The position numbers were made by a program, and so were the translations under genes. The notes under the pieces are model-generated. The model ran no database searches. It was not told the DNA's origin and was given only the letters and a program-made list of their open reading frames with translations. This document shows positions 12,322 to 60,439 of a DNA stretch of 64,000 nt, one piece after another. The stretch spans positions 32,001 to 96,000 of IMG/VR virus record IMGVR_UViG_3300037484_000235. The stretch is one strand, 5' to 3'. Position 1 is the first letter of the stretch; each line of letters starts with the position of its first letter. Source of the stretch: a virus (taxonomy: Duplodnaviria; Caudoviricetes).

Positions 12322-12855
12322 ATGACTGACGCCGATGACCGATCCACAAATGACGACCTGACTGATGACTACGACCCCAACGACTTAGGGGATCTCCAGT
12401 GTGGTATGATTTCATCCACAAGATCAGCGGTGTGTATTCTGAATCCTGGACATGGGGGTATGCACCGTGTCTTTTCCGTTACAACCCACAGTTTTGGACC
12501 CAGGAAGCCTATCCCATTTCCGGATCTGGAAAACATTAACCCAGGAATCCGAGAGACAGTCAGGCTCCTAAATCAGAATGGCTTCCGGACTACAGATAGT
12601 GGTGACGGAAAGACAGGTGACTATTCGTGTGACCGTCCCTACCCATACGTGTCGATTGCTTCAACCCGTGCGGGGTTGATCCAGGATGCAGACGACATCG
12701 CCTTTCTGTTCTCTGAGCACGGTGTTCAAGTCGGAGAACTCACCGAAGAGGGTGAAGGCCCCTACATCCAGGCGATGTACACCCCTCAGGTAAAAAACTG
12801 CGCAATCATCGACATTCAGAATGTCGATGACAAGCTGTTGGGGCTCGTACCCTAA
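12322..12855 (+). CDS. hypothetical protein
   Basis: 177 aa; GF.T.DSGDG motif. Confidence 0.65.
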   Translation: MTDADDRSTNDDLTDDYDPNDLGDLQCGMISSTRSAVCILNPGHGGMHRVFSVTTHSFGPRKPIPFPDLENINPGIRETVRLLNQNGFRTTDSGDGKTGDYSCDRPYPYVSIASTRAGLIQDADDIAFLFSEHGVQVGELTEEGEGPYIQAMYTPQVKNCAIIDIQNVDDKLLGLVP

Positions 12856-14459
12856 CCCTTGGTGACGTGCCCATCGTAGAAGTGGAAGAAGACCGGGACC
12901 CTCTCGATCCCCAGCTCCGCCGCAATGGCCAGTCGATGATTCCCTTCACCAACCTTGACTCCGCCTTTACGACCGATTTGGAGGTGCACGGTGCTCCCCT
13001 TCTTCCATCCTCGGCTGTTCATACTGTCCATCAGCTCGTCCCATTCATGTGGTTCCAGACGAGCCTTGTCCCGAGTCCAAACGTACTCCCTGTAGGGTAG
13101 TAGCTCAGACAGACGGACCATCACGGGCATGTCGTCCTCGTACATCTTGTCCCCGAGCTTTTGCCAGTTCGCAATCACGTCTCCCAGGCCCGTGTAGTTG
13201 GAGTAGTACCCAGCGGTACGACCACCATGTGTAACAGTGCCCAACGCCGCCCGCACGGCGTCCTGCAAACGGTCTGGTTGGAAGGCGAGCATTGGTGTGC
13301 TCAGCATCGCCTCGCGAGCTAGAGGGGCCAGTGCGCCCCGGTCTCGGCCCTGTAGGTTGAACTCTGTGATGAGGGCCGTGTTGTCGATCGGTGGCTTCTT
13401 GAGCTTCTCGAAGAACTCGTCAGCCTCATCGCTGATCATCCCCGTGGTGATTTCCCGGAGTCTGACTTGTTGAGGCTTCGTCAGGAAAGCTACGGGCTGC
13501 GACCCAAGCCCAAGGTCTGCCAGATCCAGAAGCAACGCCACCGCACGGTTCCCGTTGCTGAACTGCTTTGCCATGTACGAGGCAAACGGAGCCTCACTTT
13601 GGATCATTTCCGAGAGGGTCTCGATCAGGCCCAGGTGAGCCATTGTGAGAAGGGCCCCACGTGCATTAGGGGTGTCCAGAATGTCTTGCACCAAGATCGT
13701 GGCAATCGCCTCCCATGGCATCTTCTTCATCTTGGGGGCGTTACGCCGGACACTGGCCGCAACCTCATCGGTCAGATCAAGCTCGTACTTGATCGAGAAT
13801 TTAATCAGTCTGAGCATACGTGTTGGATCGTCGGAGAATGTTCGGTCCGGATCCAACGGTGTGTGGAGCATTCGCTCTTCGAGGTGCTGCACGCCAAGAC
13901 CCGTAAGGTCGATGACTTCTGCGTAGTCAGGTCCGTTTGCTAGGTCGAGCAGTCTCCAGAGCAGAGAATTGAGCGTGAAGTCGCGTCGATTTATATCCTC
14001 TTCGATGGTGGCTGGTTGGACATCGGTGGGCTTGTAGCCTTTTCCTTTCCCTTCGGCTCCACCGTAGGACTCTTTGCGCGCATTCGCGATTTCCAGAATT
14101 TCACCCTTCAGCGAGTGGCCCTCAAGTTCCCATTCTCCCTTAATTGTCAGTATGACAACCCCATACTGATTGGTTGTGAGATTCGTTGGGGCTGGGATAG
14201 CCTTGGCCAGTTGATTTGCAAACCACTCTGAGTTCTTGCCGAGCGCGATGGAATCTACGACGACGTCCAAATCATTGATTGGGTACTTGGATCCACCAGG
14301 GTCCATCATGAAGTTACGCACGGCCCCACCAACCACGTAAACGTGACTAGCCACACCCAATTCGATTGCTGTGCGAGACAAGAACTTCATCAGCGCCACT
14401 GAGCGTGCATGCGACCCAGCGTTGAGAAAGCGAGTTGCGACTTGAGATGCTTGATCCAT
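12852..14459 (-). CDS. cca: class II tRNA nucleotidyltransferase/poly(A) polymerase (CCA-adding type) fused to C-terminal ParB/sulfiredoxin-like domain
   Basis: VVGGAVR, DLDVVV, RKESY, EDINRRDFTLNSL, FSDDPTRMLR; C-term GEGNHRL..A..LG...VPV; no HD domain seen. Confidence 0.88.
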   Translation of the reverse strand: MDQASQVATRFLNAGSHARSVALMKFLSRTAIELGVASHVYVVGGAVRNFMMDPGGSKYPINDLDVVVDSIALGKNSEWFANQLAKAIPAPTNLTTNQYGVVILTIKGEWELEGHSLKGEILEIANARKESYGGAEGKGKGYKPTDVQPATIEEDINRRDFTLNSLLWRLLDLANGPDYAEVIDLTGLGVQHLEERMLHTPLDPDRTFSDDPTRMLRLIKFSIKYELDLTDEVAASVRRNAPKMKKMPWEAIATILVQDILDTPNARGALLTMAHLGLIETLSEMIQSEAPFASYMAKQFSNGNRAVALLLDLADLGLGSQPVAFLTKPQQVRLREITTGMISDEADEFFEKLKKPPIDNTALITEFNLQGRDRGALAPLAREAMLSTPMLAFQPDRLQDAVRAALGTVTHGGRTAGYYSNYTGLGDVIANWQKLGDKMYEDDMPVMVRLSELLPYREYVWTRDKARLEPHEWDELMDSMNSRGWKKGSTVHLQIGRKGGVKVGEGNHRLAIAAELGIERVPVFFHFYDGHVTKG

Positions 14460-14495
14460 GAGGGCTCCACCCAATGCAGAAAATAGACGGCTTCG

Positions 14496-14687
14496 CTAAG
14501 GCCGTGGCTTGGAACGACGTACGCGAGGTCTAGAAATACCAATCTGCTCGATGAGATCACTAGCCTTGCGGAATTCGCACTCCAGGCACGAGCACGTATC
14601 CCCACATCCCATACTCTTCGTTGTTGCAGCGTTTCGAAGTCGCAGCACTTCTCTTGCGGCACGGATTTTTTCTGCCAGACTCATCAT
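14496..14687 (-). CDS. hypothetical protein
   Basis: 63 aa, CGDTCSCLEC. Confidence 0.55.
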   Translation of the reverse strand: MMSLAEKIRAAREVLRLRNAATTKSMGCGDTCSCLECEFRKASDLIEQIGISRPRVRRSKPRP

Positions 14688-14926
14688 GGACCCATCCCCA
14701 CAAAGGAATTAGGCCCGTCCACAATGGCTTCGGTCTCTCTTCCTGTTGGGCTTAGCAGACGGAGACGGACACACAGTCGACCCCACCAAGGATGCTTTTC
14801 TTCCGCCGAGAGAATCTTGTAGGGCACTAGGATCATTTTGAAATCCGGTGGGTACCACTCTGGCATGTCTAGGGTCTTACCTACCACATAGCGTCTAGAT
14901 GGGGTGTCCCTGTATGGATGGGTCAT
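14684..14926 (-). CDS. hypothetical protein
   Basis: 80 aa coupled ORF. Confidence 0.55.
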   Translation of the reverse strand: MTHPYRDTPSRRYVVGKTLDMPEWYPPDFKMILVPYKILSAEEKHPWWGRLCVRLRLLSPTGRETEAIVDGPNSFVGMGP

Positions 14927-14934
14927 ACGAGGGA

Positions 14935-15261
14935 CTATTCTGGAGTGTCAATCGACCGATATTCCACAGGTCGGCCTTTGGACTCAGCACGCTCAATACC
15001 GAACCTCATCCCACGTGAGATGCCACGGTCTGTGTAGACGACCGTGGCATCCGCTTTCAATCCCCACGCAAGACCCGCTTCGATACCCCTGGTGCGCTCT
15101 TCCAGAATGAGGTCATCAAGGACGCCATCCTGTGTGTAGAGCAGGTGGCTTGCAAAGGGGGCCTCACCACGTAGAAGGGAATCTCGCATGCACCGTCGTG
15201 CATAGAGCTTGTTCGCCTCTACGTCACCTGCAAATGGACTCTCAAGGATGACGAGTCTCAT
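14935..15261 (-). CDS. conserved phage protein (deoxyribosyltransferase-like fold, uncharacterised)
   Basis: VILESPFAG, ARR, GEAPFASHLLY, GISxGM..G motifs. Confidence 0.65.
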   Translation of the reverse strand: MRLVILESPFAGDVEANKLYARRCMRDSLLRGEAPFASHLLYTQDGVLDDLILEERTRGIEAGLAWGLKADATVVYTDRGISRGMRFGIERAESKGRPVEYRSIDTPE

Positions 15262-15328
15262 GCTGCAAGTCTGTGTTCTGGGCTTGCCACAGCCAAGTAG
15301 ATACTAAGAGGGGGCGAGAATACTAGAC

Positions 15329-15868
15329 TCATTTGGAAATACCATCCTCTAGATTACGGGAAGCCGTGACGCCGACCTGATCCTGATACTTGGAACTCGT
15401 CCCATAGGGTTTTTCGGCGCTGCCTAGAAGAGCATGAAAGCTTACCTGACAGATCGAGTCCCCCTCTTGAAGCTCCACTGGCGGTCCCGCGATATCTAGC
15501 TCCAGGGTGATGTTCCCGGCAAATCCAGGGTCAATGAACCCAGCTGTGGCATGAATCCTAAGACCGACACGACCCCAGGATGAGCGGCCGTCAACTCTGC
15601 CTACAAGATCTCTGGGCATCACGATACGTTCCCGGGTCCCAATCAGATAGAGCATACCTGGTTTTAGAACCCAGGATCCAACGGGAACAAGTTCCGAGCG
15701 TCCTGGTCGCAATGCCACTCCGTAGGGCGCAGTAACCCTACATAGTGGGCCCACGATTGTCAGGTCTACAGACGCCGGTTGAACCCTCCCCTCGATCTCC
15801 AGGGCCCTGTGGTGGTCTGGAAACAGGGTTGGGAGTAACAGCTTGATCTGAGAGTCCTGAAGAATCAT
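15329..15868 (-). CDS. dcd: dCTP deaminase
   Basis: QPASVDL, GRSSWGRxGL, AGFIDPGFxGxITLEL, YQDQ. Confidence 0.9.
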   Translation of the reverse strand: MILQDSQIKLLLPTLFPDHHRALEIEGRVQPASVDLTIVGPLCRVTAPYGVALRPGRSELVPVGSWVLKPGMLYLIGTRERIVMPRDLVGRVDGRSSWGRVGLRIHATAGFIDPGFAGNITLELDIAGPPVELQEGDSICQVSFHALLGSAEKPYGTSSKYQDQVGVTASRNLEDGISK

Positions 15869-15925
15869 GTGCGTTACGATACCACCAGACTTGAGAGATT
15901 GAATGGCGGCACTGGGGCCCCTGCT

Positions 15926-16660
15926 TCAATACTCTTTTCTGGGATACCTGCCACCGTTCTCAATGGCCACGACCTGAGCCTGAGCCGCATCATACAGGCG
16001 CAGACCCTCGACGTGAGCGGGCCAGTCCCGTGCGGGGTTACACCCCTGCACTCGGTCTGCGGCACGCAGGGACTCAACTGCCATGCTTGTGCAGTCCCCT
16101 GGGCTAGGGCCATAGCGACTGACGATCTTCTGGGGGCCCCTCAGTTCAGGAGGGCAGCAGATGTAGAGATCTGCACGAGCGTAGAACTGCCTGCTTACCA
16201 CCCTGCCAATAGCATCCACACTGACCTCGGGGACAGCATCCGGCGTGTACCGTCCGAGGAACTGGCACTCTTTGCAGGTGTGTGGGTACTCCGGCACGGG
16301 CCGTGGCGTGCAGGGCGGATGACGTCGAGCGTAGTCATCGAGGATGGCATCGGCCTGCTTGGGGGTCAGGCGGGTAGGGTTGGGGCTCTCTGTGAACTCT
16401 TCGGGGGTGAACCGGAAACCGCCTGGCATCACATCGATTGTTCCAGGTGGTAAGCCCTCGATTGTGGTTGTACCACCCACCACCGGGCGCAGCTCCCCAT
16501 CTTCGGTGGCGTGAGCATAGAGCGCGTCAATGACCACATCGATTTCGGCAAGGGCCCGGACCTCTAGAGCCTCTTGAATGTCACCAGGCGGAGTAATGCG
16601 CATCGCCTCGCCATAGGCTCGAATTGCTTCCTTGAGATTACGGGCAGTCATACGATCCAC
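15926..16660 (-). CDS. hypothetical protein
   Basis: 244 aa; CxxC.FLG and DLY.C motifs as in 19720-20001. Confidence 0.6.
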   Translation of the reverse strand: MDRMTARNLKEAIRAYGEAMRITPPGDIQEALEVRALAEIDVVIDALYAHATEDGELRPVVGGTTTIEGLPPGTIDVMPGGFRFTPEEFTESPNPTRLTPKQADAILDDYARRHPPCTPRPVPEYPHTCKECQFLGRYTPDAVPEVSVDAIGRVVSRQFYARADLYICCPPELRGPQKIVSRYGPSPGDCTSMAVESLRAADRVQGCNPARDWPAHVEGLRLYDAAQAQVVAIENGGRYPRKEY

Positions 16661-16875
16661 TTACCCCTGATTTTCGAAGCGTGGAGTACGCATCGACGCT
16701 CGCCTGGATTCTTGCCCACCTCGTAAATTGCGAATCGAACCACCGCGTGAGTGTGGATGATGTTCGAGAGTTCGTGTAACGCGTCCACGATGGTGTCCGC
16801 GTCTCTACTGGCGTCCCCCTGATTTTTCATGGTCCATACGACCTCGAAGTGATCCTTCTTACGGGCGGTAGTCAT
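16648..16875 (-). CDS. hypothetical protein
   Basis: 75 aa in operon. Confidence 0.6.
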   Translation of the reverse strand: MTTARKKDHFEVVWTMKNQGDASRDADTIVDALHELSNIIHTHAVVRFAIYEVGKNPGERRCVLHASKIRGKWIV

Positions 16876-17206
16876 GTGTGATCTTCCCCTTTCTCAGGCG
16901 TTCGGTGAGGGCCCCTGCGATGAGGGCCTGGCGGATGGTCTTCCCCACTTCGGCCTCGATGGTGTCCCGCTCACCTCGGGATACCAGGAAGTCCTTGGTC
17001 CATCGGCCTCGGCCAGTGCGATATTCGAAGCGGACTAGAAACAATCCATCAGCCTTAGAGGGTGCGACTCGCAGACGTCGCCACTCACCTGAGGTAGGTG
17101 AGGGCTCCGGATTGTCTCGCAAGGTCTCTCGCACGCGGTTGAGTCCCCAGACCAGAAAGACCAGGACTAGCCAGCCCGTGACTGCGATGAAGAAAAAGAC
17201 CGTCAT
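16859..17206 (-). CDS. hypothetical protein with N-terminal TM anchor
   Basis: hydrophobic first 22 aa. Confidence 0.6.
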   Translation of the reverse strand: MTVFFFIAVTGWLVLVFLVWGLNRVRETLRDNPEPSPTSGEWRRLRVAPSKADGLFLVRFEYRTGRGRWTKDFLVSRGERDTIEAEVGKTIRQALIAGALTERLRKGKITHDYRP

Positions 17207-17218
17207 GCTTTGACCTGC

Positions 17219-17410
17219 TTATTTCACGTTTTCAAGCTGAGCGACAAGCGCCATGACGTCTTCTAGAACACTGGCTGCTACAAGAGAACGATTCACGTAT
17301 GGGTTCGCATGAGGAACCCCACTAAGATGCTCCTCATCGCAAGCATCTGCGATTTTCATGAGCCGTTCACGTTCGACGAGCAATTTCTTGATCAAGTCAG
17401 ACTTGGTCAC
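17219..17410 (-). CDS. hypothetical protein
   Basis: 63 aa coupled. Confidence 0.6.
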   Translation of the reverse strand: MTKSDLIKKLLVERERLMKIADACDEEHLSGVPHANPYVNRSLVAASVLEDVMALVAQLENVK

Positions 17411-17634
17411 ACGTCCTCGACTCGGATTACGACCCGCACGATGCGCACGAGGGGGCCCAGAGGGTGTCCACTCAGAGCCTTTTCGGCCTCTGCCAGATTT
17501 GAGAATCGGTAGGAATCCACTGCGTCATCAATCCACTGATGTGGACGTGAGTCCCCCTCTGGATTGATGAAGGAGGCATTGAGATAGCCCCTCTCGTAGA
17601 GACGCAGGGTGTACCACACCCACTGAGTGGTCAT
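17407..17634 (-). CDS. hypothetical protein
   Basis: 75 aa coupled. Confidence 0.6.
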   Translation of the reverse strand: MTTQWVWYTLRLYERGYLNASFINPEGDSRPHQWIDDAVDSYRFSNLAEAEKALSGHPLGPLVRIVRVVIRVEDV

Positions 17635-17870
17635 TTGAGATTGGCCTCATGATCTCGCTTGAGCAGGATCATGATCTTCGAGCGGGCCTCACGGAAGGCA
17701 ACAGACTCCCCCTTGGCCTCACCCCAGTTGAAGAGCATGGTCTCCCGGGCAGGGCCCTTCGCTCGCTTGGCAGCCAGTTCAAACCCGGTAGCTGCCTTGA
17801 GGTTGTGCTCCGCCTCATCCAGTAGCTCGTTGGCGATGGCCTCCAGCTTCATTCGTGTGCTCAGGTCCAT
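17631..17870 (-). CDS. hypothetical helical protein
   Basis: start MDLSTRM. Confidence 0.6.
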   Translation of the reverse strand: MDLSTRMKLEAIANELLDEAEHNLKAATGFELAAKRAKGPARETMLFNWGEAKGESVAFREARSKIMILLKRDHEANLK

Positions 17871-17877
17871 TAGCGTG

Positions 17878-18840: not shown

Positions 18841-18857
18841 GATGTCCTCACCTGTGT

Positions 18858-26699: not shown

Positions 26700-26887
26700 G
26701 CCTTGTATCCCCTTGCCTTGTATCCCCTTGCCTTGTACGCCTTTAGATCAGCTTTCAGAATGCAGATGCTGCAAGTCCCGCATTCGTCTTCGCACTCACG
26801 GAGCCCTACGACCATTTCTGCGGAATAAATCAGATTCCACAGGAGGTCTGCCTTGGTCTTGCGAGGGGTCTTCGTCTTGGTCGTCAT
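26696..26887 (-). CDS. hypothetical protein with YKARG tandem repeat
   Basis: first ORF after promoter; ends YKARGYKARGYKA. Confidence 0.65.
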   Translation of the reverse strand: MTTKTKTPRKTKADLLWNLIYSAEMVVGLRECEDECGTCSICILKADLKAYKARGYKARGYKA

Positions 26888-26906
26888 GGGCTTTCCTCAC
26901 CTAAAT

Positions 26907-26936
26907 AACGGGTCAGCCCCCAGGGATTACACGATT
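26907..26936 (-). promoter_or_regulatory. repeated promoter AATCGTGTAA-N16-CGTT
   Basis: motif read directly. Confidence 0.85.
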
Positions 26937-27884: not shown

Positions 27885-28114
27885 GACTCGCTCCCCGGGC
27901 CCCAGCGGTGGTCACAGGCGCAGCACCGGAACTCCTGGCGTGAGCCCTGGCACCCGTTGTCCTCAGTGTCCTTGCACCCGCAAGAGGGGCACTCGGAGCC
28001 CTCAGCTTGGCGCACAGACTTTGCGAGTGATCGGAGCTGGATCTGACGCTCCAGGTCCGTGAAGGGAGCAAGCAGGATACCGAGAGTGATTTGATCGATG
28101 GTCTTGGGGGTCAT
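27881..28114 (-). CDS. Zn-ribbon protein
   Basis: CPSCG..EDNG..FRCCACDHRW. Confidence 0.6.
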   Translation of the reverse strand: MTPKTIDQITLGILLAPFTDLERQIQLRSLAKSVRQAEGSECPSCGCKDTEDNGCQGSRQEFRCCACDHRWGPGSES

Positions 28115-28305
28115 GGGGCCTCCGGATGAAATGTGAGGTTGCTTGGACCAGCGTAATAGCCACTCTTGTATGCCTGCACCGCGTACCCACGCTCGTAACC
28201 AATGAGTCGGTCCGTAGGCCAGCCGTGCTCTACGGCCCAAGTTCGCGCCGCAACGAGCGTTGGCCAGTAGTAAATGCCGCGATGCGTCTTTAGCGTGTCG
28301 TCCAT
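28111..28305 (-). CDS. hypothetical protein
   Basis: AGGAG RBS, MDDTLKT. Confidence 0.65.
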   Translation of the reverse strand: MDDTLKTHRGIYYWPTLVAARTWAVEHGWPTDRLIGYERGYAVQAYKSGYYAGPSNLTFHPEAP

Positions 28306-28413: not shown

Positions 28414-28428
28414 GTCTCTCACCTAGGT

Positions 28429-28458
28429 AACGGTTGAGCCCACCAGGATTACACGATT
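28429..28458 (-). promoter_or_regulatory. repeated promoter AATCGTGTAA-N16-CGTT (no ATG follows)
   Basis: motif read directly. Confidence 0.85.
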
Positions 28459-41217: not shown

Positions 41218-41859
41218 GTCCGGAGTAGATTCTTCCGCAGGACCGTTGATACCAGACATCTGCGATGCAGTGTCAGCGAGTGCTCTGGGTAGTAACTCCC
41301 CGTACTGCTCAACGGGGAGCAAGAACTTGCCGTCCTTTGTCTTCCCTGAGGCATCAAGTCCCTTGAGGAATTCCCCCATGACCGTGTAGAGGAAGTGCCA
41401 GACCTCGGGATTGCCCTGGGCGACAGGGTCCCCCTTCGCTGCCCAGACGAACTTCTTGGCGCGATTGACCAAGGCGAACATCTCCCGGGGCTTCAGGGAA
41501 CACCACAGGATGGTTCGGGTGCCCGAGGGGGATAGCTGATTCGTCGTGGCATCAAGGTGTGCTTCCAGCACGCGCTTGAAGAGTGCGGTGCGGGTGACGG
41601 TCTTCCCCTCATAGATCTCCGGGAACGCAGGGCTCCACACCCCCTGCTCGTAGGAGGACAGGAGGAAGTTCGATCCGTGAATCAGCCAGAACTCGTAGCC
41701 CGTCTGCGGATTCAAGGTGAAGTGTTCCAGGGAGTGCTTCTTCTTCTCCCGAAACTTGGTGGCTTCGCGGGCCTTTTCGATTTGTCGGTCTTTGGACCTG
41801 GCACTTGCCTTTTTTGCTCGTGTGCCTGCCTTCTGTGCTTTGTTCTTTGACATTCCCAC
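41206..41859 (-). CDS. hypothetical protein
   Basis: 217 aa, basic N-terminus. Confidence 0.6.
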   Translation of the reverse strand: MGMSKNKAQKAGTRAKKASARSKDRQIEKAREATKFREKKKHSLEHFTLNPQTGYEFWLIHGSNFLLSSYEQGVWSPAFPEIYEGKTVTRTALFKRVLEAHLDATTNQLSPSGTRTILWCSLKPREMFALVNRAKKFVWAAKGDPVAQGNPEVWHFLYTVMGEFLKGLDASGKTKDGKFLLPVEQYGELLPRALADTASQMSGINGPAEESTPDSDG

Positions 41860-41888
41860 ACCTTACACCCGGCGTAACGTACAACGTG

Positions 41889-43466
41889 ATGAATCCTGTT
41901 CTTGATCAGCAGAGGGCGTGGGAGCTTCTTTCGAGTGGCGCCCATGAAGTTGCACGCGTCGTGTCCAAGACCTTCGGCCCTGCGGGCGGCAAGGTCATGA
42001 TAGAGAAGGCAGGGTCGGTCCTTGTAACGACTGATGGGGCCGCACTCACACGCGAGACTCAGCTTGACGGTGCGAAGAGACTGGGTGCGACCCTCATCCG
42101 ATCTGCCGCAATCAAGACCGATGAGCAAGTTGGAGATGGGACTTCCACAACGGTGATCTTGGCGGACGCTCTCATCCGGGAGATTGGAAAGAGGGCTTGT
42201 GTGCACGGCTGGGATCCGGTGTGCACGGTAGCTCAAATCCGAGAAGCTCATCTGGAGGCAGAGGGTCAGATTCAGCATATGTCCCGCCTCGCAGATCGTG
42301 AGTGTTTGGATCGGATAGCCCTCATGGCTTCCCATGAAGACCCACTCATTGCCGAGAAGGTAGTTGAGGCGGTGCTTGCAGTAGGCGAGGGCGGGTCCGT
42401 GGTGATCTCGCCCTACGAGGGGACGGGGATTGTCCTTGAGCAGAAGGCCGGACTTTATCTCAATCAAGGGTGGACCTCCTTCGATATGGCACCGGCAGAC
42501 GGATCCACCGAGCGGGAGATGGATGGGCCTCTCGTGGCCGTGTTCCGCCAAGGACTTCGACGGGTGGGTGACATTGCGACTGCGATGGAGCAAGCGAGTC
42601 AGTGGCCGGGTCGTGGTCTCGTGGTGTTTGCGCCCAGTATCCAGGGGGATGCCCTCAAGACCCTCTTGGTCAATGACAAGAAGGGCGTGCTCTCGTGTGT
42701 GGGTGTCGAGTACTCGGGGTCATCTGCGGACCTGGACGACTGGCTTGAGGACATCTCGGCAGTCACCAATTCGATGATCGTGGATACAGGGACAGGGATG
42801 TCCCCTGAGAAGTTCGAGGGGTCGTGGTTGGGTTCCGCTCGAAGAGTGACCCTGACTCGGGAACACACACTCGTCGTCTCCTACCTGGATGGGGATATTC
42901 CCCAGAAGATTGATCTGAGAGTTGCCCAGCTTCGGGCGCGAGCCGAGGTCTCCCCCTACCCCTACGAGAAGGCCAAGCTCACGGAGCGTGCTTCGGCGAT
43001 CGATGGGGGCCTCTGTACGCTGCGGATCGGTGGACTCACCAAGCAGGAGGGTCAGGACCGTCGCTCACGGGTCGAGGATGCCCTCAAGGCTGTGCAGACG
43101 TGTCTGAGGGGCGGCGTGGTTCCTGGAGCGGGCTACGCGCTGTTCAGGGCCTGTGTGTGGCTCCCTCAGACCGAGGGCGGCGTGATACTGGACAGGGCTC
43201 TCATGTCGGTCCTGGGCACGCTGGCGAGCCGGGCGGGGGCAGAGCCTCAGACCGTTTTTCGGGAGGGCATGGAGGTCACTCTGTACGATCCCGATGGGTG
43301 GTACGGGTGGGATCCACTGCTTGGGGATTGGCGAGACTTCTGGGTGACGGCCCCACGAATCGTAGACCCCACTGAAGTCGTGTTGGCAGCTCTTAGGAAT
43401 GCCGTATCCGTTGCTTGTCAGATCGCTTTGTGCGGGGTGGTCCTTGGAGTGCACCCAAAACGATAA
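41889..43466 (+). CDS. groEL: divergent GroEL-like chaperonin
   Basis: TFGPAG, TTDG, GDGTST, GGVVPGAG, IVDPTEV..AL.NA.SVA; no GGM tail. Confidence 0.85.
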   Translation: MNPVLDQQRAWELLSSGAHEVARVVSKTFGPAGGKVMIEKAGSVLVTTDGAALTRETQLDGAKRLGATLIRSAAIKTDEQVGDGTSTTVILADALIREIGKRACVHGWDPVCTVAQIREAHLEAEGQIQHMSRLADRECLDRIALMASHEDPLIAEKVVEAVLAVGEGGSVVISPYEGTGIVLEQKAGLYLNQGWTSFDMAPADGSTEREMDGPLVAVFRQGLRRVGDIATAMEQASQWPGRGLVVFAPSIQGDALKTLLVNDKKGVLSCVGVEYSGSSADLDDWLEDISAVTNSMIVDTGTGMSPEKFEGSWLGSARRVTLTREHTLVVSYLDGDIPQKIDLRVAQLRARAEVSPYPYEKAKLTERASAIDGGLCTLRIGGLTKQEGQDRRSRVEDALKAVQTCLRGGVVPGAGYALFRACVWLPQTEGGVILDRALMSVLGTLASRAGAEPQTVFREGMEVTLYDPDGWYGWDPLLGDWRDFWVTAPRIVDPTEVVLAALRNAVSVACQIALCGVVLGVHPKR

Positions 43467-50000: not shown

Positions 50001-50393
50001 TCCGTCAGGTTTATTGTTCTCGTCCGTGTGCTTCTTGATTGCTGCTAGCACGACCTTCCTCAGGTCGGGCCCGGAACGCAGGTGGCAGTTGCACTTTTGT
50101 CCCCCGCGGGTGCCACACCATTCTCCGTGCGGCACCCCCTCACGAGCCGCCGCAAAGACGGCCCGTGCTATAGCCATCTCGTAACGCAGAGGCAGCTCTG
50201 GCTTCTCGGGCTTGGGGGGAAGCATCGGCGTATCCCTCGTGTCCAGATTGATCTCCCGAAGCCGATCGAAGAAGATCACGAGAGACTGGGCTAGGGTATG
50301 CCTCAAGTCCATGGGGGTGTTAGGATCAAATCCTCCCCCCATCTCCATACGATGCATGACCTTGCGGTACGTCTTGTCGCCCTTGTAAGTCAT
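49992..50393 (-). CDS. hypothetical protein
   Basis: first ORF after promoter; HGEWC..CNC. Confidence 0.65.
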   Translation of the reverse strand: MTYKGDKTYRKVMHRMEMGGGFDPNTPMDLRHTLAQSLVIFFDRLREINLDTRDTPMLPPKPEKPELPLRYEMAIARAVFAAAREGVPHGEWCGTRGGQKCNCHLRSGPDLRKVVLAAIKKHTDENNKPDGSG

Positions 50394-50414
50394 GATCTCT
50401 TTGCTCACCTTGGT

Positions 50415-50444
50415 AACGGGTGGGCAAAGAGAGATTACATGATT
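50415..50444 (-). promoter_or_regulatory. promoter variant AATCATGTAA-N16-CGTT
   Basis: motif read directly. Confidence 0.8.
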
Positions 50445-54767: not shown

Positions 54768-54985
54768 GCTTTGACGACGCCTGTTGTGACCATCCACCAA
54801 TGAAACGCAAGAGCCTGACGGGAAGGGAGCAAGACTCTCATTTCCGTCGAGCGCTTGTTGCCTGAGGTGCGAAACGCGAGGACAACAAGCTCTTTTCTGT
54901 TTGGGTCAAAGTTAGTGGTCTCTGTTGGCGTGTCCATGTTCATGGACACGTTACGCTTATCGGCTGGTGGAATCCAGTGCGACAT
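54764..54985 (-). CDS. hypothetical protein
   Basis: 73 aa with AGGTGA RBS. Confidence 0.55.
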   Translation of the reverse strand: MSHWIPPADKRNVSMNMDTPTETTNFDPNRKELVVLAFRTSGNKRSTEMRVLLPSRQALAFHWWMVTTGVVKA

Positions 54986-55138
54986 ATCACCTAGGGTAAC
55001 CTAGGATCTGCCGCAGCGCTAGTGGTGCCTCATCTGTTGTCACGCGTATTGGCCACCACCCATGATACATTTGGATGTTGTGATGAACAACACCCCCTCG
55101 GTGAGGCCCATCGATGCTGGCACCTTCTGGTGTTACGG

Positions 55139-55321
55139 TCAGTCCTCGTCTTCTGGTTCCATCGCCAGGTTTTTCTTCCACCATCCTGGACGCCCATTGT
55201 CTCTGAGCCTGCCACACGCCTCGTCCAACATGCCTACAGAACCGTGCTCCCATTGGCGGACCACCTCTGCGGCGTCTTCCAGAAGGGACTCGTAATTGGC
55301 CTTCAAGTTGTCGCTGGTCAC
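55139..55321 (-). CDS. hypothetical protein
   Basis: 60 aa coupled. Confidence 0.55.
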   Translation of the reverse strand: MTSDNLKANYESLLEDAAEVVRQWEHGSVGMLDEACGRLRDNGRPGWWKKNLAMEPEDED

Positions 55322-55764
55322 GGATCCTCGCTAAGCAAGAGAGATTCCATAGCCTCATCCATAGCCTTATCGAAAGCCATCTCGTAACGCCTGTGGATTA
55401 CTAAGTCCTCAGCATCCATCTCTGCAAGCGTGTCTACACCACCATCCAACAGCGTACCGACAAGAGAGTCTATGGTAGTCTTGATTTCCTCAAGGGTTAA
55501 TGCTGTTTTAACGGTGGACACTGGAGAGCTTGTACCATGTTTTGCTTCCCACTCCAAGACGTATCCCAGACACTTGGGGCAGTTGGGGCGCCTCTTGGTG
55601 AGCCCCCGCTTGAAGTTCGCCCAGATTGTGCAGAGTGTCCACGCACCCCCATCTAGAAGTGAGGGGGGTGGTGAAAACTGACCTTGTATCAGGTGCCAAA
55701 CGTCCCCAACAAGGACGCAGTGGTACCCATCGCTGAAGAGCTTCTTCGGTGGGTCAGTAGCCAT
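55318..55764 (-). CDS. hypothetical protein
   Basis: WH...LC...CPKC. Confidence 0.6.
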   Translation of the reverse strand: MATDPPKKLFSDGYHCVLVGDVWHLIQGQFSPPPSLLDGGAWTLCTIWANFKRGLTKRRPNCPKCLGYVLEWEAKHGTSSPVSTVKTALTLEEIKTTIDSLVGTLLDGGVDTLAEMDAEDLVIHRRYEMAFDKAMDEAMESLLLSEDP

Positions 55765-55936
55765 CTTTGAACCATCCCCCACCCCTGAGAACGAATGACG
55801 GGGCCCCTGAGATCAGGCGGCGCACCTCTCCCTTGCACCCCTTCTTCCGGCACTTCTTCAGCGGGGGGTCTGAGATTTTCTGGTCTGCCTCAAAGGTCTT
55901 TTTGCACTTCGAGCACGCATAATCATAGAGAGGCAC
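55754..55936 (-). CDS. FmdB-family zinc-ribbon protein
   Basis: PLYDYACSKC...FE..Q......C..C...RLIS..SF.L.GGGW..DGY. Confidence 0.8.
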   Translation of the reverse strand: MPLYDYACSKCKKTFEADQKISDPPLKKCRKKGCKGEVRRLISGAPSFVLRGGGWFKDGY

Positions 55937-56216
55937 TAGTTCGCTCCGCCTTATCCACCCACCAGCGAATGTTCTGTTCGGCCTCAACCCTAGAAACACT
56001 CCTAGCACACCACGGCAGTGAGAGCTGGGAGTCTTCCGGAAGGCTCTTGCCCCGAGTGGCATCTACCACCAAAGCGTGAATCCCGTCGTGTGGGTCTTGG
56101 GACCACTCGCTCGGATGATCCTCCGCCCAGTACTCAGCATCCTTTGAGCTTTTCGCGACTACAAAAACCCGATAGTTGATCTCGACTTCGTAGAGCTTGT
56201 GGCCGTTGTCTTCCAT
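55923..56216 (-). CDS. hypothetical protein
   Basis: start MEDNGHK. Confidence 0.6.
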   Translation of the reverse strand: MEDNGHKLYEVEINYRVFVVAKSSKDAEYWAEDHPSEWSQDPHDGIHALVVDATRGKSLPEDSQLSLPWCARSVSRVEAEQNIRWWVDKAERTSASL

Positions 56217-56230
56217 TTGGACCCCAGCTC

Positions 56231-56515
56231 TCAGTTCAGGTTCTCGATGCGAACGGACTCTACCGCTTCCTGAACGCACTTCTCCAGATACTCAATGGCG
56301 CCGATCTCAGGCCAACCGCCTTCAAGAGCACGGTGCATACTTGCAGTGTAGTTCACTCGTCCATCCCACTTTTGACCACGAATCTGGTCCTTCATGTAAG
56401 CAACTAGCTTCTCACGTTCCTCAAAGCCAATGCTCACGTCAAGAAGCTTTCTCTTCTGACCGAGTTTCTGAGTCCTAAGCTTGAGCTTTCCGTCTTCAAT
56501 GTAGGCGTAGAGCAT
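56231..56515 (-). CDS. hypothetical protein
   Basis: 94 aa with GGAGG RBS. Confidence 0.6.
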   Translation of the reverse strand: MLYAYIEDGKLKLRTQKLGQKRKLLDVSIGFEEREKLVAYMKDQIRGQKWDGRVNYTASMHRALEGGWPEIGAIEYLEKCVQEAVESVRIENLN

Positions 56516-56589
56516 GGTGCGTCAACCTCCCATACACTGTGCGGGGTATGCCACCATCATCGCGGGACACGGCCGAAAGTTGCTTTTCA

Positions 56590-57420
56590 TCAGATGGCAA
56601 TTGGGAAGGAAATCGCCGGATGGGGGTCATACCCCACGAGCTTGGAATCGTCGTGCTTCCATAGAAAGATGGAGTTCGACGGCGCTACTGTCTCCAATGT
56701 CGGGAGCTGAAGCGATTCCCTAGAGAGCTGTTCTACAGCCCCCTCCATCTGATTGACGTAGATATGGGTGTCAGCCAGGAAGCCAATGAGCTTCCCCTCT
56801 AAAAGGCCACAGTGTCTCGCGATGAGGTGCAGCAAAAGAGCATACGACGCGATGTTGAACGGTAGGCCAAGCATGGTGTCGACAGATCGCTGAGACCACA
56901 GCAGGTCCAGTTTTCCATTGTTCACCAGAAGCTGGAACGCGAAGTGACATGGTGGTAGGGCCATTGCCGGTATGTCCGTTGGATTCCATGCAGAACAGAT
57001 GAGCCTGCGGTTCTTCGGATCGTCCTGGCAAAGGCGCAGGATGTTTGCAAGCTGGTCAATCCCGTTGAAGCTGCGCCACTGTGCACCATAAATGGGGCCC
57101 AGGTCTGGTTCGTTGCGCATCGCAAGGAAGGACTCCGAAGAGTGACCGTAAGGCACTTTGGCGGGGGAGCACCACTCGTCCCAGATGGTACACTTGCGCT
57201 CCTGATACCATCTCTTGTCTGTGACCCCGTTGATGAAACCCTCAAGCTCAACTTTTACGGATCGGAACGGGACCCTCTTCGTAGTCAACAGGGGGAATCC
57301 GTTCCCCATGTCGTGCTCAAAGAGAACCCCAGACAGCGAGCGGGTGTCAACCCCCGTGCGGTTGGGTTTTAGTTGCCCCTCACGGATGATGCGCCGCACT
57401 ATGGTCTGATAGGAATGCAT
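56590..57420 (-). CDS. thyA: thymidylate synthase
   Basis: FPLLTTK, LGPIYGAQWR, MALPPCH, QRSVD..LGLPFNIASY, DTHIY.N. Confidence 0.95.
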   Translation of the reverse strand: MHSYQTIVRRIIREGQLKPNRTGVDTRSLSGVLFEHDMGNGFPLLTTKRVPFRSVKVELEGFINGVTDKRWYQERKCTIWDEWCSPAKVPYGHSSESFLAMRNEPDLGPIYGAQWRSFNGIDQLANILRLCQDDPKNRRLICSAWNPTDIPAMALPPCHFAFQLLVNNGKLDLLWSQRSVDTMLGLPFNIASYALLLHLIARHCGLLEGKLIGFLADTHIYVNQMEGAVEQLSRESLQLPTLETVAPSNSIFLWKHDDSKLVGYDPHPAISFPIAI

Positions 57421-57439
57421 GATCCTCTGTATTTCTCTC

Positions 57440-57943
57440 TTATAACTTCAAACCCATCGCACGCATCTTGAGGAGTGCCTCAGCATTCCCCCGGGCATCA
57501 TCCAGAGGGTCATGCGTGTGCTTGGTTCCTCGAAGGTGCTTAAAGTTCTGACGGGTGTCATTCACCATCCCCTTGTAGAGGGATCCAAGATTTGTTGAGC
57601 TGAAACCAAATGGGCAGTGCCCCAAGAAGTGGTGAAAGTACCAGCAGACAAATTGCCAGTCAAATCCATTGTTGTCCGAGATGAACATCGGTCGGGGGAT
57701 TGTGGAGAGCCACTGGGAGAATGCCTCCATCCCATCTGTGGCAAATGGGAACTCAAGCGTCTCTTCCCTGGAATGTCCGCTGATGGCTAGTGCCTCGGGA
57801 ATCCACCTTTCGGAGATTGGTCGGAACCGAGCGGCAAAGGTCCGGTTGAGACCAGGCTCCACTACGATGGCCCCAAGGGAAATCATAGAGAAGTCCCCGG
57901 GGATCGGCCCATCGGTTTCCACGTCCACCATAACGTACGTCAT
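57440..57943 (-). CDS. DEDDh 3'-5' exonuclease (RNase T / RNase AS-like)
   Basis: VDVETDGP, DN.GFDW, H.PLDDA. Confidence 0.85.
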   Translation of the reverse strand: MTYVMVDVETDGPIPGDFSMISLGAIVVEPGLNRTFAARFRPISERWIPEALAISGHSREETLEFPFATDGMEAFSQWLSTIPRPMFISDNNGFDWQFVCWYFHHFLGHCPFGFSSTNLGSLYKGMVNDTRQNFKHLRGTKHTHDPLDDARGNAEALLKMRAMGLKL

Positions 57944-58134
57944 GGTGCCACCCACAGGTCGTGTGCCATTGCGTTAGCCCCACAGCGGGAACAGCTTGCA
58001 CTGTCCGAAAGGTCAGTCGATTGGGTAGGTCCATCCCAGACGTGCTCGCATGTACCCTCCGGGCACTTGCACTGGCAAGTTCTTGAAGATGGCCCACAGA
58101 AGAACAATGAAATGGCAGACTCAGTGGTGTTCAC
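57940..58134 (-). CDS. small Cys-rich protein
   Basis: probable GTG start; CEH.WDGP..CSRCG..AM.HD. Confidence 0.55.
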   Translation of the reverse strand: MNTTESAISLFFCGPSSRTCQCKCPEGTCEHVWDGPTQSTDLSDSASCSRCGANAMAHDLWVAP

Positions 58135-58388
58135 TTGCGGCCTTTTTTCTCTGTGATGATAGTGATTGGAACCACCGTCTCGCACTCGATCTCACGGATG
58201 ATCCGACCAAGAGCCCGTCGAAGTTCCTTGGCATCCTCAACAGAGATGTGGGCGACCCCAGTTTTCTCATTGGATGAAGCCAGAATCTTGACCAACCCCT
58301 TACCATTTCCTGAATGGCCGATTTCCGCAATACCCTCTTGCCAGGCAGATACTATCCTCACAGACCACCTCCGCGCTCGGTCCTTCAC
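58131..58388 (-). CDS. hypothetical protein
   Basis: 85 aa coupled. Confidence 0.5.
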   Translation of the reverse strand: MKDRARRWSVRIVSAWQEGIAEIGHSGNGKGLVKILASSNEKTGVAHISVEDAKELRRALGRIIREIECETVVPITIITEKKGRK

Positions 58389-59005
58389 TTGGACCCACCT
58401 GTCAGGGAGTCACCTGTGTGGAACAACGGCCAGCGAGATTCCCACCCGTAGTGATTGGACACCACCCGGTAGGCGTCCTTGAAGAGGATCACAAGCTCAG
58501 AGATTCTCGTGTCCATCTGAGGGCCCTCTGCGGCCAAGACGACTTCAAGCGCTGCATCTGAGTAGCCACGGATGGCCTTGAGACCCCATTTTGGTGGAGC
58601 GAGGAACAGGTCGAGGACATTTGATGTCTTGTCGGCGATCTTGATCGCCTGACCCTCGATGCCCATGCTTCGCATCTTGCCGAGCTGGAAGATGTGCTTC
58701 GCTTCCCGGTCTTTCTTGACGTCATCCGGAAGTGTGAGGTCGTGGACCAGCCCCGCTACGTGGACACCGAACTTGGTGTTGATCTGTTCGATTGTGACTC
58801 TGGTGTCCTCTACTGTGTCGTGTAGAAGAGCGGCAATCAATGTGCTCGGGTCATTGAATCCAGCCTGGGAGACCCGACTGGATACATCGAAGCAGTGATT
58901 GACGTATGGGGTCCGAATCTCCCCACCACGGACCTGATCGAGGTGTGCGTTTGTTGCGAACTTCACAGCTTCCATGAGCTGTGGTACTAGGATTTCTGGT
59001 TTCAT
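58385..59005 (-). CDS. HD-domain small alarmone hydrolase (Mesh1/SpoT-hydrolase-like)
   Basis: FA..AH..Q.R, PYVNH, AALLHDTVEDT, IKIADK.SN. Confidence 0.88.
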   Translation of the reverse strand: MKPEILVPQLMEAVKFATNAHLDQVRGGEIRTPYVNHCFDVSSRVSQAGFNDPSTLIAALLHDTVEDTRVTIEQINTKFGVHVAGLVHDLTLPDDVKKDREAKHIFQLGKMRSMGIEGQAIKIADKTSNVLDLFLAPPKWGLKAIRGYSDAALEVVLAAEGPQMDTRISELVILFKDAYRVVSNHYGWESRWPLFHTGDSLTGGSK

Positions 59006-59016
59006 TTTGGAACCAC

Positions 59017-59247
59017 TTACGCCTTTTTGCCGGACTCCAAGTAAATCTCCGCCAGAGTCTTATTGGGCAGGGTGGGGTCTTGGATATCCCGTGCGAGCAT
59101 GTCTAGCTCGGCTGCGAACTTCTTGCGATTGGCACCGCGCATCAGATCCGCTAGGGTACTGACCATCCCTGCGCAACGGTTGCGTTCCGTCCTTTGGGCT
59201 TCTCGAACAAGGTCTTCATCCCGGGGGTCTAGGCGCTTGAGGTTCAT
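59017..59247 (-). CDS. hypothetical protein
   Basis: start MNLKRLD. Confidence 0.6.
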   Translation of the reverse strand: MNLKRLDPRDEDLVREAQRTERNRCAGMVSTLADLMRGANRKKFAAELDMLARDIQDPTLPNKTLAEIYLESGKKA

Positions 59248-59630
59248 CACATTGGCCCGCTCTTTCTGAACTGATCTTCGCAACACCACGTTCCGGTCGC
59301 CCATTCAGTAAGGGGGAGAATTCGCCCCTGACAGAACGGGCAGGGCTTTACGATCCTGAGACCAGAGCTGGCTAGATCCAGAGTGGCCTGCACCTTGGCC
59401 GTCACGAGTCCGTACCACTCTCCGCCAGGTAGAGCGTTGCAAGCGGGGCAGAGGATGTCCCCGTGGTCCAAGTCAATCTTGAAGTCAGGGGCAGGTACAA
59501 TCACCCGACGGAATTCAAATGGGGCACCACCACATTTGGGATGCGAAAGATGTGGGTCGAAGACGCTGAGCCAGTGCCACACCCGATCGAAACCACGTGC
59601 CGCGAATCGCTTCTCTGGTTTGTCGCTCAT
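59247..59630 (-). CDS. hypothetical Zn-ribbon protein
   Basis: CPAC..CPFC..CC. Confidence 0.6.
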   Translation of the reverse strand: MSDKPEKRFAARGFDRVWHWLSVFDPHLSHPKCGGAPFEFRRVIVPAPDFKIDLDHGDILCPACNALPGGEWYGLVTAKVQATLDLASSGLRIVKPCPFCQGRILPLTEWATGTWCCEDQFRKSGPM

Positions 59631-59635
59631 GATAC

Positions 59636-59863
59636 TCAACTCTCTTGAAAGACACCCAGATTGGTCACGGGCTGGCAGGTTGCACTGCATGTCAGGCACC
59701 ACATTCCCTTCCGTACGTAGTCCCCAACCAACATTGCACAAAGATCCTTGGATACACGGTACCTACCCGTGGAAATGTGTCCGATGTGACCGCATTCAAG
59801 AGTCACGCGGATCTCACGGGGAGCTTTCTTTCTGGTTGCCACGCCGCCCCTAACCCTCTTCAT
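59636..59863 (-). CDS. hypothetical protein
   Basis: LECGH..CLTC. Confidence 0.55.
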   Translation of the reverse strand: MKRVRGGVATRKKAPREIRVTLECGHIGHISTGRYRVSKDLCAMLVGDYVRKGMWCLTCSATCQPVTNLGVFQES

Positions 59864-60056
59864 TGGCGAGGAAGCGGACTGCAACCCGCGACACGCGACG
59901 GGTCTCACGAGCGTTGGCCTTCTTGGCATCCGACTTACGCCCCCGCACACAGCAAGAGCAGTTGAGCCCACCGGGTCCGTGCACCGAGTGTGTGTGGCAG
60001 ACACGACGAACACTACTACGGAGAGGGAGATACATTTGCAGTCCTTTCAGTTCCAC
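59850..60056 (-). CDS. hypothetical basic protein
   Basis: CHTH..GG..C.CC. Confidence 0.45.
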   Translation of the reverse strand: MELKGLQMYLPLRSSVRRVCHTHSVHGPGGLNCSCCVRGRKSDAKKANARETRRVSRVAVRFLANEEG

Positions 60057-60337
60057 TCCAGAAGGATCCAGATTCCTCCCTGACGAAGGTCTACGACTCG
60101 CGAGAAGTAGTACAGGTTACCCGATCGAATGACCCAGTCGTGCCCGAAGTCTTCGAGGAACGCTGTATGAAGGTGGATCGGCATGAAGGGGAGAGTGGGG
60201 GACTTGCTTTCATCCGTAAAGAACTGGAGCGTCCAGACTCGGTTTGGGCGTCCGGGAAGAGTCGGCCCACCAGCGAAGGGCACATGTCCTCGCGCAGTTT
60301 CACTCTTGGGCATCCAGACCAGTTCTTGACGGGGCAT
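60047..60337 (-). CDS. hypothetical protein
   Basis: AGAGG RBS immediately after tRNA-like RNA. Confidence 0.6.
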   Translation of the reverse strand: MPRQELVWMPKSETARGHVPFAGGPTLPGRPNRVWTLQFFTDESKSPTLPFMPIHLHTAFLEDFGHDWVIRSGNLYYFSRVVDLRQGGIWILLEWN

Positions 60338-60350
60338 GACGTGTTCCTCT

Positions 60351-60439
60351 TGGTGCCGGGTCAGGGAATTGAACCCTCAGATTTTAACCTGCCCCCAACC
60401 CTTGCGGGCCACCGCCTGGTGCTTCGAGGGGGTACCGAC
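60351..60439 (-). ncRNA. tRNA-like RNA with T-arm, acceptor 3' strand and ACCA but non-canonical 5' half
   Basis: GAGGG-UUCAAUU-CCCUG-ACCCGGC-A-CCA has exact tRNA 49-76 spacing; 5' GUCGG pairs with CCGGC; no 7-nt anticodon loop. Confidence 0.6.

Follow-up and report, generated by a model that had tools for sequence, protein, structure and literature searches.

The 64-kb stretch of DNA analyzed here (the window; bases 32001-96000 of the 252,521-bp IMG/VR virus record IMGVR_UViG_3300037484_000235, with an estimated completeness of 57% and a GC content of 56%) contains an 89-nt tRNA-like cloverleaf RNA, termed RNA2, which is a real structured RNA, more than chance, and which looks like a tRNA-Leu-derived mimic with its D and anticodon arms replaced. 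The original prediction had joined RNA2 with a second promoter-proximal RNA (RNA1), a CCA-adding-type nucleotidyltransferase, a Mesh1-like hydrolase and a DEDDh exonuclease into a single tRNA 3'-end defense module. All five features exist where they had been placed; this observation as a whole is partly confirmed, and the interpretation as a whole is partly supported. The favored reading, held with moderate confidence, takes the five as independent parts of a huge phage's RNA-maintenance and counter-defense repertoire and not as one co-evolving module. The features concerned are, in window coordinates:

60351-60439, minus strand: RNA2, 89-nt tRNA-like cloverleaf RNA (common fold in three lineages, covariation, covariance model R1)
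60392-60424, minus strand: invariant 33-nt core of RNA2 arm I (100% identical over 33 nt in contigs L020/L051; identical over 31 nt in contig L018)
28318-28413, minus strand: RNA1, 96-nt rod-like leader RNA with a small side hairpin, from folding
58385-59005, minus strand: Mesh1-like small alarmone hydrolase (SAH), 206 aa, a single HD_4 domain
57440-57955, minus strand: Cap18/Exo-like DEDDh enzyme, 171 aa (match to 7T2S, DEDDh residues)
12852-14474, minus strand, ATG at 14459: class II CCA-adding-type nucleotidyltransferase, about 415 aa plus a C-terminal extra of about 125 aa (Pfam, PHROG, motifs, fold)

RNA2 consists of an acceptor stem, an arm I (a P1 stem around the invariant core), an arm II that resembles a class II variable arm, a T-arm, a discriminator A and a CCA end. 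The acceptor stem has 5-6 bp, with an invariant U2-G71 wobble and with mismatches at its base, and the T-arm is canonical (4 bp and a UUCAAUU loop); the "top half" of a tRNA is kept (7-layer acceptor, 5-layer T-stem, canonical T-loop, A73, CCA). A three-way-junction arm of 41-44 nt, which holds the 33-nt core, stands where a tRNA has its D and anticodon arms, and neither a D arm nor an anticodon stem with a 7-nt loop appears in the folds of the three RNA2 homologs. An acceptor/T-arm minihelix with a UUCRANN T-loop, a discriminator and CCA at tRNA spacing is present in RNA2 only, not in RNA1.

The evidence that RNA2 is real is comparative: compensatory changes, a common fold in three lineages and the invariant core; the folding energy of RNA2 alone is unremarkable (z = -0.6). 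A scan of JGI metagenome contigs with 20 nt of the core found 39 places, three of them true homologs (L018, L020 and L051); the other 36 are chance matches, many of which read as one coding peptide (QAVARK). Contig L018 comes from a close strain in which a deletion takes the 3' half of RNA2, the ribosome-binding site and the first ~50 codons of the next open reading frame (ORF), so that the 5' half of the RNA2 T-arm now runs directly into mid-ORF sequence (L018:346-444), a natural knock-out of both. Close-strain contigs from another metagenome cover positions 60233-60638; here, one T-stem pair is flipped (60363 A>T with 60377 T>A), acceptor pair 5 has changed from G-C to U-A (60435 C>A with 60359 G>T), and 60360 G>T makes a sixth acceptor pair. 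Four of the six differences in the ORF adjoining RNA2 are spaced 3 or 6 nt apart, and RNA2 itself carries many differences. The phage represented by L020/L051 has no protein detectably in common with this genome across a 7.9-kb locus; its RNA2 homolog follows a similar promoter and stands before unrelated genes. The three full-length versions of RNA2, each folded independently, converge on the same four-way junction; in their alignment 95.7% of cells are paired, and five pairs are changed on both sides, against 0-1 when the partners are slid by 1-3 columns.

Several points weigh against the favored reading of RNA2. The comparison draws on only three independent sequences, one of which was reconstructed from an incomplete list of differences that omitted 12, and the arm I core shows no variation, so that its internal fold gains no covariation support. 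None of the RNA sequencing runs checked contains RNA1 or RNA2 stretches. At the syntenic site in contigs L013/L014 the promoter leads straight into the ATG, as read from the sequence; since RNA2 is missing there and half-deleted in L018, some lineages can dispense with it. Nor is an encoded CCA conserved, because the distant homolog in L020 reads ACUA at its end; this phage and the close strain both encode CCA.

The relationship to tRNA-Leu is suggested by the covariance model of the RNA2 family (R1), which gives 102 bits at RNA2 itself, finds its next best matches within this genome in class II tRNA-Leu genes (18-20 bits), and places RNA2 arm II on the tRNA-Leu variable arm. RNA2 and the phage's own class II tRNA-Leu (genome 109.8-110.3 kb) have in common the acceptor/T-arm geometry, the T-loop sequence, A73, an encoded CCA, and a hairpin of similar sequence at the position of the long variable arm; unlike tRNA-Leu, RNA2 lacks the D arm and the anticodon arm and loop, has an acceptor of 5-6 pairs, and goes unseen by ARAGORN and Rfam. 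Neither RNA2 nor RNA1 matches the Rfam tRNA family (RF00005) even at E<=10, and ARAGORN makes no call on either. That the nearest covariance-model relatives are tRNA-Leu genes, and that RNA2 is absent from L013 and half-deleted in L018, would also suit a decaying tRNA-Leu pseudogene without function of its own; yet compensatory changes preserve all four helices, the 33-nt core is invariant across phages without detectable common proteins, and the T-loop consensus is kept in three lineages, which together make a pseudogene extremely improbable. Two further identities were tried and rejected. An attP site or tRNA 3'-half remnant finds no integrase-like Pfam match in the tested adjoining ORFs, and the 5' strand of RNA2 pairs and covaries; transfer-messenger RNA (tmRNA), mascRNA or pemK gave only fragmentary Rfam matches far under thresholds.

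Phage T4 makes small, non-decoding stable RNAs with tRNA-like acceptor ends together with its tRNA genes (species 1 and 2; rnaC and rnaD), which have no known function. Their likeness to RNA2 is one of description; RNA2 differs in its place at the front of an mRNA operon, well away from the tRNA cluster, and in its defined invariant arm. A 26-mer of the core is absent from 185,579 species genomes, and there is accordingly no exact copy in a host RNA or prophage in that set; a degenerate core pattern matched IMG/VR only once, by chance and in coding sequence; model R1 found nothing in three complete huge-phage genomes; a megablast search of both regions against 50,697 phage records gave no match, so that the phage has no near relative among public phage records; and no paralogs of RNA1 or RNA2 were detected in the same genome by blastn-short or covariance model.

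Both RNAs are preceded by a two-part phage promoter motif, and their immediate surroundings are:

60452-60492, minus strand: promoter motif before RNA2 and the minus-strand gene run (consensus match)
60047-60337, minus strand: first ORF after RNA2, 96 aa, without Pfam or PHROG match; its Shine-Dalgarno sequence GAGGA begins 3 nt after the CCA
28419-28458, minus strand: promoter motif before RNA1 (consensus match)
28111-28305, minus strand: first ORF after RNA1, 64 aa, no relatives found

The motif, written AATCGTGTAAT-N16-CCGTTACnnAGGTGAG or AATCGTGTAAT-N16-CCGTTACnnAGG, is present dozens of times in the record, with matches read by eye. It is usually found just ahead of a start codon, on the coding strand, and it precedes tRNA clusters too; further window examples, also consensus matches, are at 60505-60550 (plus strand), 26869-26933 (minus strand) and 50377-50441 (minus strand). 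A stricter pattern has 21 matches, at most of which the start codon follows the motif by 11-20 nt; the RNA1 and RNA2 sites, with 117 and 118 nt, are the clearest exceptions inside the window. Because of this distance, the sequence of a promoter-driven RNA, then a ribosome-binding site, then an ORF is an accurate description of both loci. The original claim of two promoter-driven RNAs ending in NCCA stands as far as the promoters and the ACCA end of RNA2 are concerned; the GCCA end of RNA1 is a chosen boundary. The consensus suggests the specificity of a phage-encoded or redirected RNA polymerase. A scan of IMG/VR for the motif returned seven contigs, six of them with one common, unrelated conserved sequence, and no relative among them.

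The two RNAs fill the interval from an early promoter to the first Shine-Dalgarno sequence of a long multi-gene run, at nearly equal spacing, as unreleased cis-acting leaders also would; such leaders might modify the polymerase, like the put antitermination RNAs of phage HK022, or stabilize or regulate the downstream mRNA; the helix of RNA1, which extends through GCCA when flanks are included, fits such a role, and neither RNA matches a known free RNA family. For RNA2 this reading has to contend with exact tRNA spacing and a canonical T-loop, conserved by covariation in L020 before unrelated genes; moreover, true tRNA genes lie at similar distances behind promoters of this type, which drive them, and related operons function without the RNA2 element. 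Leaders of this kind are therefore considered unlikely, though far from negligible. In the favored alternative, RNA2 is an RNA gene of its own, situated after an early phage promoter and ahead of the first ORF, much as tRNA clusters follow promoters of the same type; its product is a tRNA mimic without decoding function that either derives from class II tRNA-Leu or resembles it in build. It would be released by RNase P and 3' processing, its end might be completed or repaired by the CCA enzyme, and its invariant arm would presumably bind one specific partner.

RNA1, in turn, would be a second promoter-proximal structured RNA of different shape. In its closing helix a C-A mismatch separates 6 bp from 8 bp, and GCCA, AGGAG and ATG come after the helix; the minimum free energy is -42.1 kcal/mol (z = -2.6, or -3.6 with flanks). 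When flanks are included, GCCA pairs with the 5' leader and the helix runs on through it, which makes the CCA "end" of RNA1 a matter of the chosen boundary. Three independent metagenomes each hold a fraction of 0.46-0.55 of the RNA1 31-mers, so RNA1 exists in other strains. A search for homologs yielded none: the downstream 64-aa protein is unique, the sole relative contig (L059) diverges before RNA1, a pattern scan of IMG/VR came back empty, and RNA1 has no match in Rfam. By its predicted fold, RNA1 is a stable leader hairpin with an ambiguous CCA end.

The original statement that the window has no canonical tRNA is true, and ARAGORN confirms it for the 64 kb, but it misleads: the whole record has 46 tRNA genes and one tmRNA (ARAGORN; the full tmRNA lies at genome 168034-168418), and the first tRNA is 6.3 kb past the right end of the window. 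CCA is encoded in 37 of the 46 tRNA genes and missing from nine. Rfam confirmed the tRNAs and added a YrlA-like RNA (59 bits, E 2e-11); in the same island, just beyond the right edge of the window, lies an ORF for a TROVE/Ro60 protein. This pair invites the view that the phage Ro60 has RNA2, and perhaps RNA1 as well, for a Y-RNA-like adaptor, whose tRNA-like module and conserved arm would tether Ro60 to a nuclease or to substrates. Known bacterial Y RNAs bear tRNA-like modules, YrlA/Y RNAs and RNA2 are both tRNA-mimicking non-coding RNAs, and RNA1 is rod-like with paired 5' and 3' ends. However, neither RNA matches Rfam YrlA (RF02553) even at E<=10, and the Ro60 gene is ~22 kb from RNA2 and ~54 kb from RNA1. 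The YrlA layout, with a closed acceptor and permuted tRNA halves, is not seen in either RNA; the acceptor end of RNA2 is open and carries CCA. A Ro60 partnership is consequently judged quite improbable.

The nucleotidyltransferase (12852-14459), called a CCA-adding-type enzyme from the outset, is by sequence and modeled fold a genuine class II enzyme of this type, and CCA addition is its predicted activity. It matches the Pfam PolyA_pol head domain (1e-13) and the PHROG family "tRNA nucleotidyltransferase" (3e-24), and contains the motifs GGAVRN...DLDVV, RRDFTLN and DDPTRMLR; the positions of GGAVRN, DLDVV and RRDFTLN are invariant in 30 homologs. An AlphaFold model built on these homologs has a predicted local distance difference test (pLDDT) score above 90 for residues 1-415, and the top 45 Foldseek matches in the PDB are without exception class II enzymes that add CCA, CC or A, or poly(A) polymerases, with about 430 (400-500) aligned columns that span head, neck, body and tail. 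Compared with the class II CCA-adding enzymes of Thermotoga maritima (3H38) and Bacillus stearothermophilus (1MIV), the phage protein has the same head-neck-body-tail fold and motifs A and B; it differs in its low identity (14-20%, Foldseek), its C-terminal extra, a family often found in giant proteins, and its motif D, which reads DDxxR (DDPTR) and not the templating EDxxR. The last point is a caveat to the assignment; among the 30 homologs the second D and the R of this motif are invariant and the first D nearly so.

In an exhaustive profile search 221 representatives passed E<1e-30, with 45-62% identity over residues 10-412. Many members of the family lie within proteins of 1000-3400 residues together with topoisomerase IB, 2H/LigT-like phosphoesterase and other domains; the homologs P0046, P0063 and P0040 (1200-3400 aa), in which the module occurs alongside topoisomerase IB, 2H/LigT-like phosphoesterase, DUF5661 and phosphatidylserine-decarboxylase-like domains, resemble "polyvalent" phage proteins. 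The surroundings of the gene are as follows:

12852-13230, minus strand: C-terminal ~125 aa of the nucleotidyltransferase, ending in a GEGNHRLAIAAELG segment and kept in a few homologs (P0034, P0050, P0046)
14935-15261, minus strand: DUF7768 protein, just upstream of the nucleotidyltransferase
15329-15868, minus strand: dCTP deaminase, likewise just upstream

A ParB/Srx domain in the C-terminal 125 aa was not confirmed; this part has no Pfam match at E<=5 and a low-confidence model. The 55%-identical homolog P0034 also adjoins a dCTP deaminase, followed by a faint nucleoside-deoxyribosyltransferase-like ORF. An ordinary use for the CCA enzyme is at hand, because the phage has 46 tRNAs and nine of them lack an encoded CCA; this role had been hidden by the window edge. 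The enzyme would mature and repair the 3' ends of the 46 tRNAs and of tRNA-like RNAs. The incorporation of its family into giant multi-domain phage proteins makes it probable that it mends clipped CCA ends early in infection as well.

The SpoT/Mesh1-type HD hydrolase (58385-59005) was likewise correctly recognized. Its HD_4 domain scores 50.5 bits against a cut-off of 27.2 (2.5e-13), its best solved relative is human MESH1/HDDC3 (5.5e-20), and the metal-binding and catalytic residues are all kept (H37, H62-D63, E66-D67, D125, N129); the alignment to MESH1 retains NH, LLHDTVEDT and ADK..N. Homologs occur in 73 phage records. The background invoked for this enzyme in the original prediction is correct: MESH1 and ATfaRel restore tRNA that has been pyrophosphorylated at its CCA end by FaRel2 (bioRxiv 10.1101/2021.04.30.441581), and the hydrolase PaSpo of Salmonella phage SSU5 neutralizes toxSAS toxins (PMC9712102). 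The relevant comparison is to MESH1, C. marina ATfaRel and PaSpo, which have the same single HD_4 domain with metal-binding and ED catalytic residues; unlike them, the phage hydrolase is an orphan without a toxSAS partner in the record, where no RelA_SpoT synthetase domain was found, and its substrate is predicted from relatives. It may remove host alarmones, pyrophosphate from tRNA CCA ends, or both.

The DEDDh gene had been cast as a trimmer of tRNA ends. The DEDDh residues are indeed all present (D11/E13, D99, H148/D153), but the only close solved relative is 7T2S (1.1e-26 over residues 7-160), which is Cap18 of E. coli (PMC12345164); the next solved matches are the PolC exonuclease (0.0075) and DnaQ (0.063). 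Cap18/Exo is reported to be inactive on DNA and RNA and to cleave instead 2'-5' oligoadenylate and the 2'-5'-linked linear intermediates of cyclases of the cyclic-oligonucleotide-based antiphage signaling system (CBASS) (2026 preprint, bioRxiv 10.1101/2025.03.04.641389). For this reason a trimmer is less likely; the enzyme is probably not one, and an activity against cyclic-nucleotide signaling is the more likely reading, in which it would most likely destroy the 2'-5'-linked intermediates of host CBASS-type signaling. The phage enzyme and the CBASS-associated Exo have the DEDDh core and the PFG segment in common; unlike Cap18, the phage enzyme does not lie in a CBASS operon but in an early-gene run between small ORFs and thyA. 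With regard to the residues for 2'-5' selectivity (P15, D49/E51 and F120 in VcExo), P17 and the PFG segment are present, as placed by spacing, and one acidic residue is replaced by R: the residue after a conserved SE is D in Cap18 and R in the phage enzyme, the 2'-5' specificity of which is predicted from its relatives. Homologs occur in four of 50,697 phage records, all of them longer than 460 kb. As a caveat, the Cap18 assignment leans on one preprint, and the nearest Pfam family, below its cut-off, is that of the Rv2179c-like exoribonucleases, which leaves room for an activity on RNA 3' ends; more generally, the substrates given here for the enzymes are those of relatives at about one-third identity or less. 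Counter-defense roles of the individual parts are plausible.

As originally stated, RNA2 heads the minus-strand run that also holds the hydrolase and DEDDh genes; RNA2, hydrolase, exonuclease and thyA form one apparent transcription unit, without an internal promoter motif or a convincing terminator. Thymidylate synthase ThyA (56590-57420, minus strand; Pfam Thymidylat_synt, 3.9e-86) is the next gene after the DEDDh enzyme; relatives carry ThyX in its place. The CCA enzyme is 44-46 kb from the other genes and in another transcription unit. Relatives of the gene run, found through a divergent 263-aa gene, have the following contents:

L013/L014: hydrolase present; ThyX and SspB; RNA2 absent (sequence read); flanks, as far as covered, without an exonuclease gene
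two ENA contigs (gene lists only): hydrolase present; AcrVA2-like protein and ThyX; a gap of only 118 nt at the RNA2 site; no exonuclease gene in the fetched flanks
L016: hydrolase absent; two RNase_T genes, without match to the Cap18-like gene; RNA2 not seen (184-nt gap; no R1 match)
L015: hydrolase absent; PARG, tmRNA and ThyX; RNA2 not seen (no R1 match); no exonuclease gene in the fetched flanks

The hydrolase is thus found in the same operon in L013/L014 (52% identity) and the two ENA contigs, in L013/L014 without RNA2, and RNA2 occurs alone in L020/L051; the co-occurrence in relatives on which the module had been staked is not observed. No homologs of the CCA enzyme or of the Cap18-like enzyme were found in phage LR745208.1; in the huge phages LR756500 and LR756501 the homologs found are >100 kb apart. 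By its gene content the run is a fast-changing early-gene island and not a conserved module; in relatives the equivalent run holds tmRNA, PARG, nucleoside deoxyribosyltransferase, an AcrVA2-like protein and SspB, and the island appears to gather counter-defense and host-takeover genes. The hydrolase and the Cap18-like enzyme would belong to this set.

The pathway first proposed, in which the RNAs soak up the attacker and tRNA ends are freed of pyrophosphate by the hydrolase, trimmed by the exonuclease where damaged, and built up again by the CCA enzyme, can point to several of these observations: MESH1-like hydrolases can dephosphorylate ppCCA-tRNA, RNA2 presents a canonical acceptor/T-arm minihelix with ACCA and appears to be transcribed as one unit with hydrolase and exonuclease, at least one giant protein combines a member of the CCA-enzyme family with a 2H phosphoesterase, and the window encodes a protein with a cREC domain. 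Yet the parts do not co-occur in relatives, the exonuclease is Cap18-like, the CCA enzyme sits at its distance of 44-46 kb in a nucleotide-metabolism neighborhood, the RNA2 homolog of L020 has no encoded CCA, and a decoy has no need of an invariant 33-nt arm. The single defense module is not upheld, and this pathway is very improbable. Independent contributions to RNA maintenance and counter-defense remain the favored account; in a published survey, CCA-adding enzymes, alarmone hydrolases and TROVE proteins are predicted as RNA-repair or counter-signal factors of jumbo phages (PMC7824862).

A conserved mimic RNA with an invariant arm, apparently tRNA-Leu-derived, is what is new here; SAH-type phage hydrolases that neutralize toxSAS toxins were already known. 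Huge phages carry large tRNA sets, the purpose of which is debated; a conserved mimic of this kind, first in an early operon and bearing an invariant arm, would be evidence that tRNA-shaped RNAs also evolve in phages for purposes beyond decoding. With its 89 nt and natural variants, RNA2 is a concrete test RNA, and the neighboring Mesh1-like hydrolase and Cap18-like enzyme are candidates that can be tested for action against toxSAS and CBASS immunity. A bolder, joint reading, in which RNA2 founds a new class of phage tRNA mimics that capture one tRNA-recognizing protein by the invariant 33-nt arm and a phage-captured Cap18/Exo in the same island represents a new anti-CBASS strategy, is doubtful. 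If it were true, RNase P and the phage CCA enzyme would mature RNA2, a scaffold derived from tRNA-Leu, to act as an early decoy or inhibitor of a host defense enzyme that attacks acceptor ends or of a translation or processing factor, and the phage Cap18/Exo would turn the host's own threshold enzyme on the 2'-5' intermediate of the cyclase.

Two further genes of the window, outside the loci discussed so far, bear on its origin and content:

41805-43466, plus strand: GroEL-type chaperonin, 553 aa, 49% identical to GroEL of the 485-kb uncultured phage LR745208.1
6866-7186, minus strand: protein with a cREC_REC (cyclic-phosphate-processing receiver) domain (Pfam PF20274, 4.2e-19), RNA-repair-type content outside the interval first noted

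The identity of its GroEL to that of a 485-kb phage identifies the source, by sequence, as a huge phage; the chaperonin was the best marker found for relatives. Searches of IMG/VR for relatives with the hydrolase and with GroEL found none. The cREC domain is tied to RNA-repair systems in the literature. RtcB, T4 Rnl1 and the RelA_SpoT synthetase were sought in the record and none was found, the Rnl1 search being one without a positive control.

Some minor observations concern the RNA genes of the record and its relatives. The tmRNA gene of contig L015 lies at L015:3992-4362 (minus strand) and encodes the tag ANDNDVPVFAAAA. In the present record, tRNA-Ser is missing among the 46 tRNAs called by ARAGORN. 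Two tRNA-Sec-type Rfam matches below threshold (33-34 bits), at L009:12992-13076 (genome 112992-113076) and L009:11260-11343 (genome 111260-111343), may be class II tRNAs or further mimics. A partial match to the tmRNA model (26.8 bits) covers ~100 nt at L009:13200-13300 (genome 113200-113300), ~80 nt after a phage promoter, and is distinct from the full tmRNA.

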